From NCBI GenBank assembly GCA_963842525.1, contig CAWJGT010000019.1:352001-416000 (forward strand): a stretch of DNA of 64,000 nucleotides. Reading direction: 5' to 3'. Position numbers and translations under genes: made by a program. The notes under the pieces are model-generated. The model was not told the DNA's origin. It saw only the letters and a list, made by a program, of their open reading frames with translations, and did not search any database. This stretch comes from an uncultured Holophagales bacterium. Its GTDB lineage: Bacteria; Acidobacteriota; Thermoanaerobaculia; Multivoradales; UBA5704. Below are positions 10,655 through 50,451 of this stretch, piece after piece (position 1 is the stretch's first letter; every line of letters starts with the position of its first letter).

Positions 10655-10871
10655 AAGAGCCCTGACGGGGCTCGGGCATAGAGCCTGGCGCTTCAGCGCC
10701 AGGTAGGGCATCCCCATTTTCCCTAAGCCCTGAAGGGGCGGGGGCATTCTTCGGCCTCAATCTGTGTGCTCCCACCACCGCATCGGGGCTCGCGCCCCTC
10801 GCCCGTGCCGTCGCCCCTTCAGGGCTTGGGTCAATATCGGGTCTCGGTCCTGGGGTTGAAACCCCAGGCTT
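10655..10871. repeat. REP-type composite element, family B (5' part, interrupted by the intron; continues 12713-12735)
   Basis: Hairpins cctggcgcttcagcgccagg, gccctgaaggggc and cctggggttgaaaccccagg; colinear with the reverse complement of 49135-49350. Confidence 0.9.
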
Positions 10872-12712
10872 GTGCGCCCGTGAGCGCACACGTTCAGAGA
10901 GGTGAAAGTCCTCTTCAGGCATACGCTCTCCGGCCTGTAACCGAAGGTAACTGCGTCGCCCAAAGCGAGGTGGAGAGCAACCGGAGGTGAGAGACCAGTC
11001 CGCAGGAGACGAAATCGATTCGGCCTTGTGACCCCGACGAGCCTGCAAGCCACTGGCGAAGTCTGGACCCTCAAGGGAGACCCATCGAGCTGAGGGGTAG
11101 CGTGCGAAAGCGGCGATGGGGGGGCGTAGGGTGATTGGATGCAGAATGGTCTCAAAGGACGTGTGACGTGAAGCGGGGAGACCTCGGTCGGGCAGGAGAC
11201 TTGCCGAGGAGTCAGAGTCCTCATAGGAGCTGAGAAGCGCCGTAACGGGCGTGGAGCAAAGGGGGACAGGGAGGTGGATGCGTGACGACTGGACAAGCGG
11301 AAAGCAACCGCGCGTCAGTGCCTGTAAGGGCTAAACAAGCCGGAGAAGTCCGGGGCCGGTGGCCCTGGGTGGAACCGCATGTCTGGACGGATCGCATGTT
11401 GACGGCCCTCGAAGCTGGGGTCCAAGGAGGCCAATGGTTCAGTCTGATCGACAAGGTCTATGACTCGCGCAACCTGGACTCTTCCTACCAGCGGGTCAGG
11501 CGGAACCAGGGAAGCGCTGGGGTTGACCACGTGACGGTCGCGCAGTTCAGCGCCCACCTCGGCAAGAACCTGGAGAACCTGGCGGCTAGTCTGAAAGACG
11601 GCAGTTATCGTCCGCAGGCGATTCGCCGGGTGTGGATACCCAAGCCGGGTAGCTCCGAGGAGCGCCCTCTGGGGATTCCGACGGTTCAAGACCGGGTGGT
11701 GCAAGGAGCGCTGCGCAATGTCTTGGAACCGATCTTCGAACGGGAGTTTGCAGCCCAGAGCTACGGATTCCGTCCGGGGAGAAGTACCAAGGCTGCGCTG
11801 CGTCGCGTCTCGGAGCTGCTGGAGGCCGGCTATACCCATGTGGTGGACGCCGACCTGCGCAGCTATTACGACACGATCCCTCGCCAGGGTTTGATGGCGA
11901 GAATCGAAGCGAAGGTATCGGACGGCCGGGTCTTGGACCTGGTGCGTGCCTTTCTCGACCAGGAAGTGATGGTGGGTCTGGAGCACTGGACTCCTGAGGA
12001 GGGAACTCCACAAGGAGCGGTGATCAGTCCCCTGCTGTCGAATATCTACCTGGACCCTCTCGACCATCAAATGGCCGAACAAGGTTATGAGATGGTGCGG
12101 TACGCTGATGACTTCGTGATTTTGTGCCGTAGCCGAGAAGAGGCCGAGCGAGCGTTGGCGGAGGTGGAGGAGTGGACGGCAGCCGCCGGTCTGCAACTTC
12201 ATCCCGACAAGACGCGCATCGTGGACGCCACCCAGCCGGGTGGCTTCGACTTCCTTGGGTACCACTTCGAGCGCGGCTATCGCTGGCCGAGCAAGAAGAG
12301 CCTGAAGAAGCACAAGGACACGATCCGTTCCCACACCAAGCGCACGCACGGCATCAGCCTGCGAGAGATCATCCGCCGAGTCAACGCAGTCCGTCGGGGC
12401 TGGTTTGAGTACTTCAAACACAGTCACGGCACCACGTTCAAGCCTCTCGACCAGTGGGTGCGGATGCGCCTGAGGAGCATCCTTCGCCACCGGCAAGGGA
12501 GACGAGGACGTGGCCGGGGTCAGGACCATCATCGCTGGCCGAACGCCTTCTTTGCTGAGCATGGGTTGTTCTCCTACGTCACAGCCTATGCTCAGGCCCG
12601 TCAATCCTCTAGCAGGTAAAACCACCAACTGGAGAGCCGGATGCGGGAGATCCGCATGTCCGGTTCGGAGGGAGGGGGAGCCGGGAACTCAACCGGCCCT
12701 CCCTACCCCTAT
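10872..12712 (+). mobile_element. Group II intron, apparently complete (1841 nt)
   Basis: 5' GTGCG at 10872; domain V GAGCCGGATGCGGGAGATCCGCATGTCCGGTTC near 12634-12666; domain VI ending CCCTACCCCTAT at 12712; removing it restores the REP sequence. Confidence 0.93.
11282..12619 (+). CDS. ltrA: Group II intron reverse transcriptase/maturase (no HNH endonuclease domain)
   Basis: GSAGVD, RPLGIPTVQDR, SYGFRPG, GTPQGAVISPLLSNIYL, YADD, FDFLGY, X domain. Confidence 0.95.
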   Translation: MTTGQAESNRASVPVRAKQAGEVRGRWPWVEPHVWTDRMLTALEAGVQGGQWFSLIDKVYDSRNLDSSYQRVRRNQGSAGVDHVTVAQFSAHLGKNLENLAASLKDGSYRPQAIRRVWIPKPGSSEERPLGIPTVQDRVVQGALRNVLEPIFEREFAAQSYGFRPGRSTKAALRRVSELLEAGYTHVVDADLRSYYDTIPRQGLMARIEAKVSDGRVLDLVRAFLDQEVMVGLEHWTPEEGTPQGAVISPLLSNIYLDPLDHQMAEQGYEMVRYADDFVILCRSREEAERALAEVEEWTAAAGLQLHPDKTRIVDATQPGGFDFLGYHFERGYRWPSKKSLKKHKDTIRSHTKRTHGISLREIIRRVNAVRRGWFEYFKHSHGTTFKPLDQWVRMRLRSILRHRQGRRGRGRGQDHHRWPNAFFAEHGLFSYVTAYAQARQSSSR

Positions 12713-12780
12713 TATGCCTATGCCCCTTCGGGGCTCCTCTCAATCCACGCACAGAACCGAACAAAAATGTGTGTAAGAGG

Positions 12781-49114: not shown

Positions 49115-50451
49115 AAAGGTTTTCAACTCCGATCGCCCCGAAGGGGCATGGGCATAAAGCCTGGGGTTTCAACCCCAGGACAGCGACCCATTCAACCCCT
49201 AGCCCCGAAGGGGCGACGGCATGGGCGAGGGGCGTGAGCCCCGATGCATGGGAGGGAACGCCTGCGCCCTTTCAGGGCTCGGGAAAAATCGGGAACGCCT
49301 ACCTGGCGCTGAAGCGCCAGGCTTTATGCCTGCGCCCCTTTGGGGCTCTTCACAAGATCCTCCTTCTCGCCCTGGCGCTGCCTCTGCTCGCCGCGGCCCC
49401 GAGCACCCCGGGTTGGACCATGTTTCGCGCCGATCCGCGGCTCTCCGGGCGAGCCCAGGGGGAGCTGCCGGCCGATCCCAAGCCGCTGTGGACGTTCCGG
49501 GCGGAGAAGGGGATCTCGTCGACCGCCGCCATCGCCGGCGGCATGGTCTACGTCGGCGCGCTCGACGGCAACCTGTATGCCCTCGATCTCGCCACCGGGA
49601 AGCTGCGCTGGAAATACGCGACCGGAGCCGAGATCAAGTCGTCCCCCTCGGTGGCCGGCGGGGCGGTCTACTTCGGCGACGGCAAGGGGATCTTTCACGC
49701 GGTCGACGCCAAGACGGGGGCCCGCCGGTGGGTCTTCAAGACCGAGGGCGAGATCGTCTCGTCGGCCAACTTCGCGCCGGGCTGTGTGCTCTTCGGCTCC
49801 TACGACCAGTTCCTCTATTGCGTCGCTCCCAAGGACGGCAAACCGGTCTGGAAGGTGGAGACCGACGGGTATGTGCATGGCACGCCGGCCGTGGATGGCG
49901 ACCGGGTGGTGTCCGCCGGGTGCGACGGCTGGCTGCGCGTGCTGCGCGCGAGCGACGGCAAGGAGCTGCGCCGGGTGCAGCTCGGCGGCTACACCGGCGC
50001 CAGCCCGGCGATCGACAACGGCCGCGCCTACGTCGGCAACTTCGAGAACAAGTTCCTGGCGGTGGACCTTGCGAGCGGCGCCGTGGCCTGGACCTACGAG
50101 CACCCCGTCCGCAAGTTCCCGTACTACTCCTCGGCCGCCCTAGGCAACGGCTTCGTGGCCGTGGGCGGACGGGACAAGCTGGTGCGCGCCCTCGACGCGA
50201 AGACCGGCCGCGAGCTGTGGGCCTGGCCGGCCCGTGCCGCGGTCGATGCCTCGCCGGTCCTCCTGGGCGACCGGATCTTCGCCGCCGACAAGGGCGGCCG
50301 CATTTTCGCCCTCAACGCCCGCACCGGCAAGCCGGTGTGGACGTTCGATGCGGGCGCCGGCATCGAAGCCTCTCCCGCCATCGGGGAGGGCCGGCTGGTG
50401 ATCGCCACCAGCGAGGGCACGGTGTACGCCTTTGGCGCCAAGAAGGGATGA
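49111..50451 (+). CDS. PQQ-like (BamB/AfsK-type) beta-propeller protein with a REP inserted in its signal region
   Basis: GTGA overlap with the ADH stop; WTMFRAD, repeated LYALDLATGKLRW and SSP. Confidence 0.85.
   Translation: MKRFSTPIAPKGHGHKAWGFNPRTATHSTPSPEGATAWARGVSPDAWEGTPAPFQGSGKIGNAYLALKRQALCLRPFGALHKILLLALALPLLAAAPSTPGWTMFRADPRLSGRAQGELPADPKPLWTFRAEKGISSTAAIAGGMVYVGALDGNLYALDLATGKLRWKYATGAEIKSSPSVAGGAVYFGDGKGIFHAVDAKTGARRWVFKTEGEIVSSANFAPGCVLFGSYDQFLYCVAPKDGKPVWKVETDGYVHGTPAVDGDRVVSAGCDGWLRVLRASDGKELRRVQLGGYTGASPAIDNGRAYVGNFENKFLAVDLASGAVAWTYEHPVRKFPYYSSAALGNGFVAVGGRDKLVRALDAKTGRELWAWPARAAVDASPVLLGDRIFAADKGGRIFALNARTGKPVWTFDAGAGIEASPAIGEGRLVIATSEGTVYAFGAKKG
49135..49350. repeat. Family-B REP composite element, uninterrupted copy
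   Basis: Reverse complement is colinear with 10655-10871 + 12713-12735. Confidence 0.92.

Follow-up and report, generated by a model that had tools for sequence, protein, structure and literature searches.

Probable homing of an IIC-like group II intron into Acido-Lenti-1 hairpin repeats in the genome of an uncultured Holophagales bacterium

Group II introns of class IIC, such as B.h.I1, E.r.I1, GsI-IIC and O.i.I1, combine a compact ribozyme with an intron-encoded protein devoid of endonuclease. They recognise their target through a short pairing between the intron-binding site 1 and its exon-binding counterpart (IBS1-EBS1) and a single-base EBS3, lack an EBS2, and are found in several intergenic copies, each inserted a few bases past a DNA stem-loop. 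In the account of Toor et al. 2006 (PMC1702495), the IBS1-EBS1 pairing of IIC introns is 3-4 bp long, domain V carries a CGC triad, its distal stem being shortened by 2 bp relative to IIA and IIB, and an 11-nt epsilon-prime bulge contains a conserved AGGAA. For the E.r. IIC retroelement, a cryo-electron microscopy study (Chung et al. 2022, PMC10190682) describes a target address made of hairpin shape plus six bases. The IIC-attC introns (S.ma.I2 and relatives; PMC4424553) form a lineage specialised on the structured recombination site of another mobile system, with many sites per genome, and the same 2015 review, where it discusses target specificity in Bacteria, lists sequence-specific homing sites, terminators and attC. 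Other mobile elements land in repetitive extragenic palindromic (REP) sequences (Tobes and Pareja 2006, PMC1525189). Here we describe an endonuclease-less group II intron located in a 64,000-nt stretch (hereafter the window; G000:C19:352001-416000, C numbers denoting contigs) of the 9.95-Mb, 34-contig genome of an uncultured Holophagales bacterium. We estimate at roughly 85% the probability that this intron has been recently active and that its retrohoming, which would resemble that of IIC introns, is directed at a single subfamily of a DNA hairpin repeat present in high copy. This repeat corresponds to Acido-Lenti-1, a motif catalogued in Rfam (RF01687).

The intron, the site that it occupies and the empty counterpart of this site are all present in the window. 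The parts of the intron are the following (window coordinates).

10872-12712, + strand: group II intron, IIC-like, 1841 nt, from GTGCG at 10872 to ...CCCCTAT ending at 12712 (Rfam RF00029; reverse transcriptase (RT)/maturase gene; copies in the genome)
11282-12619, + strand: intron-encoded RT/maturase open reading frame (ORF), 445 codons counted from the first GTG (putative start), YADD present
11047-11051, + strand: EBS1 AAGCC, within the loop that caps a domain I hairpin (gcc-TGCAAGCCACT-ggc), the loop being placed by consensus fold (covariation)
11134 (intron position 263), + strand: EBS3 A, partner of the first 3' exon base T (best-pairing alignment column)
12634-12666, + strand: domain V, 33 nt, with an AGC triad, a 4-bp tip and the 5-nt loop GAGAT (Rfam alignment, fold)
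12669-12712, + strand: domain VI, in which an A bulges out at 12705, 7 nt short of the 3' splice site (RF00029 alignment, fold, sequence)

The domain V/VI region (12632-12712) matches the Rfam Intron_gpII model (RF00029) with 55.1 bits, whereas the Rfam models for group II domains D1-D4 gave no match to the intron at E<=1. RVT_1 (7.3e-42) and GIIM (1.8e-13) are the sole Pfam domains of the ORF, in which no endonuclease domain was found, and its NCBIfam match to TIGR04416 reaches 389.6 bits. The ribozyme is compact: about 410 nt stand ahead of the ORF and 93 nt behind it, and the consensus fold gives domain II as a short hairpin.

The exons and the two repeat doublets are located as follows.

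10655-10871, + strand: 5' part of the occupied repeat doublet (REPIN-like), serving as 5' exon; colinear with the empty element 49135-49350
10849-10868, + strand: target hairpin 1 (cctggggt tgaa accccagg), stem 8 bp, loop 4 nt, ending 3 nt before the insertion point
10867-10871, + strand: IBS1 GGCTT, pairing 5/5 with EBS1 AAGCC; it overlaps the hairpin stem by two bases (the first two of IBS1, the last two of the stem)
12713-12735, + strand: 3' exon part of the motif, with IBS3 T at 12713, the linker TATGCCTAT and hairpin 2 (gcccc-ttc-ggggc) at 12722-12734 (sequence, hairpin scan)
10658-10703, - strand: inverted Acido-Lenti-1 copy without an intron, at the opposite end of the occupied doublet (RF01687, 30.5 bits, E 1.8e-4, full-length, below threshold)
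49135-49350, - strand: empty repeat doublet, with an Fe-alcohol-dehydrogenase gene on one side and a PQQ beta-propeller gene on the other
49134-49179, - strand: empty target site, an Acido-Lenti-1 copy reading GGCTT/TATGCC, the slash marking the insertion point (RF01687, 34.1 bits, E 2.6e-6, full-length, under the 37-bit gathering score)
49302-49347, + strand: the other Acido-Lenti-1 copy of the empty doublet, in inverted orientation and likewise reading GGCTT/TATGCC (RF01687, 46.2 bits, over the gathering score)

Excision of 10872-12712 leaves a palindromic element of about 216-240 bp that is colinear with the empty copy at 49135-49350. The 5' side of the insertion ends with cctggggttgaaaccccaggctt and the 3' side begins with tatgcctatgccccttcggggc; the reverse complement of 49135-49179 reproduces the uninterrupted junction over 45 bases with one mismatch (T/C). 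Along the whole element, the joined flanks (10655-10871 plus 12713-12735) and the reverse complement of 49135-49350 are identical in 188 of 214 columns, plus an indel block of about 21 nt. The occupied site is split by the intron and cannot be scored as such against the RF01687 gathering threshold of 37 bits; judged by the empty copy, 12713-12735 corresponds to model positions 24-46. In the unoccupied copy at 10658-10703 the site reads GGCTC/TATGCC, and position -1 is thus mismatched to EBS1. A first-pass annotation, made from the letters of the window, had already proposed that the intron sits exactly in a REP element with the empty target in the same window, 3 nt after a perfect hairpin, and that it combines an AGC-triad domain V with the lack of an endonuclease domain; the junction, hairpin, fold and Pfam results given above bear out each of these points. 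The interiors of both doublets (10715-10850 and 49195-49290) contain further short GC-rich hairpins, gccctgaaggggc and gccccttcagggc. One of these gives a weak RF01687 match (49201-49243, 17.2 bits), and the same third hairpin was found between the motif and a Y1 transposase gene at another locus of the genome (L099).

Four copies of the intron, 100% identical across 1841 nt, are present in the genome, together with a fifth copy (on C1) interrupted by an insertion sequence (IS). All five occupy the identical position of the motif, hairpin + CTT/TAYGCC + gccccttcggggc, and the hairpin scan gave a stem of 8, a loop of 4 and an offset of 3 in every case; this coincidence of sites is therefore not due to chance. 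Outside of the core, the flanks vary from copy to copy. The host doublets are just 76-84% identical to the empty element of the window, and a BLAST search of the doublet against the genome produced 20 high-scoring segment pairs spanning at least 180 of its 226 nt, at 70-85% identity. One common 20-nt hairpin is found in four of the five copies, the C6 copy having a different stem (ggcgctgaagcgcc in place of ggggttgaaacccc) with IBS1 and IBS3 unchanged. The presence of identical introns in differing flanks indicates independent and recent insertions into older repeats, rather than duplicates of a single block that carried the intron. Counting both strands, 45 exact and empty cores (GGCTTTAYGCC) are present in the genome. 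As a measure of replication-strand bias, GC skew on the intron sense strand was computed at 100 kb; it was above zero in 7 of 9 copies, with values (0.004-0.03) that are within the weak skew of this genome (mean absolute 0.014).

The IS that splits the RT gene of the fifth copy is 1658 bp long (G000:C1:132463-134120; L005:2721-4220, L008:1-1500). It has terminal inverted repeats, an 8-bp target duplication (GTTATGAG) and one 470-codon ORF, and about 16 near-identical copies of it (98.4-100%) are present in the genome.

Exon recognition was analyzed in 80 related loci, sharing 52-81% amino-acid identity, for which boundaries were mapped and domain I was aligned. No 5' boundary was obtained for 19 of the 80 (contig ends or weak alignment), and three further loci whose 5' boundary calls looked wrong (L056, L071 and L089) were left out of the pairing and hairpin counts. 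The 56 introns with a 5' exon represent 38 distinct IBS1/EBS1 combinations, of which 33 pair at 5/5, four at 4/5 and one at 2/5, as compared to 1.6% reaching 5/5 in a mismatched-partner control. Exon positions -1 to -5 are paired with intron positions 176-180 in 96-100% of the 56 introns. For positions -6 to -20 of the same exons no covarying intron partner was found, the best columns being of low entropy and reaching 57-77%. Since pairing is confined to positions -1 to -5, IBS1 is exactly 5 nt long and there is no EBS2. In 43 of 47 introns, the base in the EBS3 column (position 263) is Watson-Crick complementary to the one that begins the 3' exon, and the figure rises to 45 of 47 with G-U pairs included (next-best column, 40/47); in exons not beginning with C, pairing is found in 15 of 17. 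Another candidate for EBS3, near intron position 103 and based on an A/G difference, failed across the relatives, the column scan giving position 263. The first-pass annotation had suggested searching domain I for an EBS1 complementary to AGGCTT. The AAGCC loop found there pairs with GGCTT and covaries with the 5' exon across the relatives. The sublineages of this genome covary in the same way, the 5' exon end and domain I loop being GGCTT and AAGCC in sublineage A, GGTCC and GGACT in sublineage B, and GCTCC and GGAGT in a fragment on C8.

A perfect stem of at least 6 bp ending no more than 8 nt from the site precedes 47 of 62 insertions, own copies and relatives taken together, with stem-to-site offsets of 3 nt in 27 cases, 5 nt in nine and 2 nt in six. 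A T-run follows the hairpin in one case out of 50. T-runs are thus nearly absent, which argues that these hairpins are not canonical terminators. The address of the intron is hairpin shape plus six bases, as in the E.r. IIC retroelement.

Other forms of the intron were observed in the genome. Sublineage B (76% identical; L006 at G000:C34:607720-609565 and L007 at C9:1683028-1684872) sits after a different high-copy hairpin, with the site gcgggcgRgacgcccgc-GGTCC/CAGGG, for which the genome has 51 empty copies; the same type of site is used by two introns of another genome (L036 and L037). In a B-type copy (L010/L012, G000:C34:123200-126107), about 2 kb of other sequence stand between the 5' 232 nt and the 3' 712 nt; this copy is either interrupted or rearranged. 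A 729-nt derivative (L009/L013, G000:C8:45341-46069) retains 560 nt from the start and 164 nt from the end of the intron and is devoid of the entire ORF. It follows a hairpin of its own with a matching EBS1 (GGAGT against GCTCC), and may be a non-autonomous mini-intron with the RT supplied in trans.

The Acido-Lenti-1 motif consists of an 8-bp hairpin, a 12-nt linker beginning with CU and a 5-bp hairpin. The motif occupied here is the one reported by Weinberg et al. 2010 (PMC2864571), Table 1 of which lists it as a likely RNA. Rfam files it as "Gene; sRNA", a small RNA (sRNA) gene, and in October 2026 the motif was still described as being of unknown function. At least 135 matches at E<=0.01 were obtained in the genome, at least 98 of them over the gathering score, with 150 scored of 2775 candidates. 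They are mostly arranged as pairs of the (-,+) type, 34 against 5 of the (+,-) type, with a median span of 199 bp. Four genes of the Y1_Tnp family (PF01797) sit between inverted Acido-Lenti-1 copies. In the case of the gene at C9:225386-225727, both flanks read cctggcgctgaagcgccagg-CTT-TACGCC... (GGCTT/TACGCC), which is the target subtype of the intron itself; the remaining motif-flanked Y1 genes have other linker subtypes (CTAATTCC and CTATATGC). The protein encoded at C9 is recognised by NCBIfam as an IS200/IS605 transposase (77.5 bits, cut-off 55).

In total, the genome holds at least eight strong IS200-like Y1 transposase genes (L099-L105). Loci include C9:225386-225727, C3:199401-199745, C32:133626-133973, C14:204236-204577 and three genes in C34:527792-531498, and four genes are each flanked by their own Acido-Lenti-1 linker subtype. 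The structural scan found no motif in the C34 cluster of three.

In this genome, Acido-Lenti-1 therefore looks like a REP/REPIN-like DNA repeat and not like the small RNA gene under which it is filed. As in the systems formed by REP doublets (REPINs) and REP-associated tyrosine transposases (RAYTs), we find high-copy extragenic palindromes, inverted doublets, copies flanking a single small Y1 gene and doublets without a gene. As opposed to these systems, the Y1 protein scores as IS200/IS605, and several Y1 genes are present, each with its own repeat subtype. Because the C9 protein does not match the RAYT family, we use the term REP/REPIN-like, which stops short of a proven RAYT system. The label "REP" given by the first-pass annotation is thus supported by inverted copies bordering Y1 transposase genes, and can be refined to the catalogued Acido-Lenti-1.

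Use of this repeat is also observed in other genomes. In five relatives (L033, L039, L046, L088 and L093), whose hosts are Acidobacteriota and one Desulfomonilaceae metagenome-assembled genome, the exons are colinear with the top RF01687 matches of their own genomes, each of which holds at least 38-145 matches (150 scored per genome). The L033 genome has identical GGCTT/TATGCC sites, whereas L046 uses a GGCTG/G subtype with EBS1 CAGCC. In a quick RT tree (SH-aLRT supports), users of Acido-Lenti-1 are intermixed with users of other hairpins: an Acidobacteriota clade of 10 rows (SH-aLRT 99) includes both target types, and a further two users of Acido-Lenti-1 belong to other clades. The type of target thus appears to switch readily. 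Unrelated flanks around homologous introns would, according to the first-pass annotation, have reduced the case to a one-off insertion; the motif type shared by five other genomes speaks otherwise. Its inference of an intron lineage homing into a high-copy REP-type repeat is sustained by the same genomes, by the five copies out of five located in the motif with differing flanks, and by the covariation of EBS1.

Public sequencing runs were searched for the locus. The best share of its sampled words was 0.26, and none of the runs holds the whole locus. In run X1 (soil, guessed to be DNA), the intron is present at 100% identity, together with a 297-nt contig of depth 3 that joins 10870 to 12712 and whose 30 downstream letters shown are those of the C1 site flank. 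Provided that X1 is DNA, this contig would be the empty allele of a site occupied in the assembly, the kind of occupied-versus-empty comparison in reads that the first-pass annotation had proposed. Run X2 contains a relative of about 95% identity with A>T at 11047 (EBS1 TAGCC), A>T at 11134 (EBS3) and a 5' exon ending in ...cccggggcta; judging from this one contig, the variant appears to be a case of natural retargeting by point changes.

Several observations weigh against homing into Acido-Lenti-1 as described here. Most relatives are not located in this repeat and use other hairpins. A strict two-hairpin scan of the joined exons was positive for 6 of 41 relatives, no more than in the swapped-exon control (11.8%). 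A relative from Lentisphaerae (L077) has a recognisable domain V/VI, no 5' end that could be found, and no RF01687 match in its 7.3-kb locus. The DNA status of run X1 is a guess and, if the run were RNA, the joined contig would represent ligated exons and not an empty allele. The RNA runs X7 and X16 yielded contigs with no more than the 5' junction or the domain V of relatives (90-95% identity). Finally, the C9 Y1 protein is below the cut-off of the RAYT equivalog REP_Tyr_transpos (24.6 bits versus 80).

Considering both sides, we favour the following scheme. The intron ribonucleoprotein (RNP) would recognise a DNA stem-loop, the sequence GGCTT at and just after the foot of the stem (EBS1 AAGCC pairing with this IBS1) and the T that follows (EBS3 A pairing with this IBS3), and would reverse-splice between GGCTT and T without IBS2/EBS2 pairing. 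The repeat would serve as terminal inverted repeat both to small IS200-like Y1 (HUH) transposase genes and to gene-less doublets of about 200 bp, so that the genome would offer dozens of near-identical intergenic landing sites. Recognition of hairpin shape by the RNP, a single-stranded target, priming at the replication fork and selective neutrality of the site would be expected by analogy with IIC introns, as far as these are covered in PMC10190682 and PMC1702495.

The alternative that survives best, although we consider it unlikely, is ordinary IIC behaviour, in which any terminator-like stem-loop followed by a short IBS1 would be suitable and the repeat would be hit as the commonest hairpin of this kind. 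Insertion of IIC introns after terminators "or other inverted repeats" is already in print (Toor et al. 2006, PMC1702495), the majority of the relatives follow unrelated hairpins, and two different stems are used in this genome. Furthermore, the genome contains 30 more hairpin+GGCTT/T sites (25 CTTTGC and 5 CTTTCG) with another downstream sequence. However, the five insertions are all in the TAYGCC subtype and none is in these 30 sites, numbers that are too small for significance; the T-run expected of terminators is seen once in 50 hairpins, and sublineage B is likewise found in a high-copy hairpin repeat of its own with many empty copies. The sole difference between this alternative and homing into a repeat subfamily is the specificity that is assumed beyond the hairpin and six nucleotides.

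It is very improbable that a repeat already carrying the intron was multiplied as a unit, through doublet transposition or a segmental duplication, which would make the shared flank a matter of common descent. The host element does look mobile, since it borders Y1 transposase genes, and the same 20-nt hairpin recurs in four of the five copies. Nevertheless, the introns are strictly identical whereas their doublets diverge by 16-24% from the empty element and their flanks differ past the core. The C6 copy is located in a different hairpin variant, 45 exact cores are empty, the C1 site appears to have an empty allele in run X1, and EBS1 and EBS3 covary with the flanks across relatives. Common descent of the flanks is already largely refuted.

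The least probable alternative, that Acido-Lenti-1 is a genuine small RNA gene with the intron as a functional interruption or regulator of this RNA, can point to the Rfam type and to Table 1 of Weinberg et al. 2010 (PMC2864571), but fits poorly with inverted pairs on both strands, copies bordering Y1 transposase genes, more than a hundred matches within one genome and an occupancy of about one site in ten in a single subtype.

Returning to the class of the intron, the best PDB matches of its RT are those of GsI-IIC (230 bits) and of the E.r. IIC element (7uim, 229 bits), over about 350 residues (358 aligned). Other solved RTs score lower (T.el4h, CL2, 147 bits; LtrA, ML, 131 bits), classes D, E and F being without solved structures for comparison. 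The intron shares with the IIC introns named at the outset their endonuclease-less RT and maturase, compact ribozyme, short IBS1-EBS1, single-base EBS3, absence of EBS2, insertion a few bases past a DNA stem-loop, and several intergenic copies. It differs from them in three respects. Its domain V is 33 nt long with an AGC triad, a 4-bp tip and a 5-nt loop; its IBS1 is 5 bp instead of 3-4 and abuts or overlaps the stem foot with no spacer; and its hairpins are not terminators but repeats of another mobile element. As compared to the IIC-attC introns, the target is here the terminal hairpin repeat of Y1 (HUH) transposase elements, and no integron is present.

Membership in class IIC is opposed by domain V in particular, which fails the canonical definition and shows AGC with a 5-nt loop in 38 of 38 relatives matched by a regular expression; among 27 relatives missed by this expression and read by eye, L098 has CGC. 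In addition, plasmid-borne RTs of unlabelled class are 34-39% identical to the intron RT, little below the identity of about 40% to GsI-IIC estimated by eye. One member of the clade was found on a plasmid by tblastn (Cupriavidus, 53.8%). The sequence CGAAGGTAACTG is present at about intron positions 71-82, and a fragment on C26 has AAGGAAAC, but the consensus fold does not resolve an epsilon-prime bulge. Classes IIE and IIF have a 5-nt domain V loop and a covarying EBS2-IBS2 (Nagy et al. 2013); the intron fails the second of these traits, since exon positions -6 to -20, where the hairpin stands, have no partner. We conclude that the intron is IIC-like in mechanism and that, pending a class-labelled RT tree, it could belong to E, F or an unclassified lineage. 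The first-pass annotation had set the intron apart from class IIC. This holds for domain V, which is not of the canonical IIC type, but the contrast was overdrawn, as exon recognition, hairpin target, endonuclease-less RT and closest solved RTs are all IIC-like.

We searched for earlier reports of this association. No literature linking group II introns with Acido-Lenti-1 was found, the descriptive supplement of Weinberg 2010 being outside the search; none linked them with RAYT/REPIN beyond incidental mentions in IS papers, and none was found on group II introns and Solibacter. The closest precedent is a Pseudomonas putida group II intron listed in a table of PMC1525189, with 2 of 9 copies associated with REPs, as compared to five of five for the present intron, whose location is explained to the base-pair level.

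Our results may also point further, to a reading that we put forward tentatively and consider somewhat less probable than its opposite. The intron could represent a distinct hairpin-homing lineage, maybe an unnamed class, that is specialised on Y1 (HUH) hairpin repeats as a parasite of a parasite, with IIC-like recognition and a non-IIC domain V. Such a lineage would be widespread in Acidobacteriota, Thermodesulfobacteriota, Planctomycetota and other phyla, and would keep pace with diversifying REP subfamilies through EBS1 and EBS3 changes of one or two bases, as in the X2 variant with EBS1 TAGCC beside a GGCTA hairpin. According to its public description, Acido-Lenti-1 lies near group II introns in acidobacteria, a proximity for which no explanation is given. 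If this is right, the proximity is explained by the present result, and a distinct lineage, if real, would also explain why Acido-Lenti-1 was noticed near group II introns.

For annotation, RF01687 matches should be read as DNA repeats, and half-motifs beside GTGCG or CTAT as intron junctions. The series of naturally retargeted introns (GGCTT, GGCTA, GGCTG, GGTCC, GCTCC and others) indicates an address made up entirely of hairpin shape and six bases, a point that bears on the targeting of single-stranded DNA by structure plus sequence. To the sequence-specific homing sites, terminators and attC sites listed for bacterial introns, these data would add a fourth flavour of target, the REP-like hairpin repeats of Y1 transposases, described at base-pair resolution and in several genomes. 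Of the two mobile elements involved, the repeat is probably produced by one and used as a landing site by the other.

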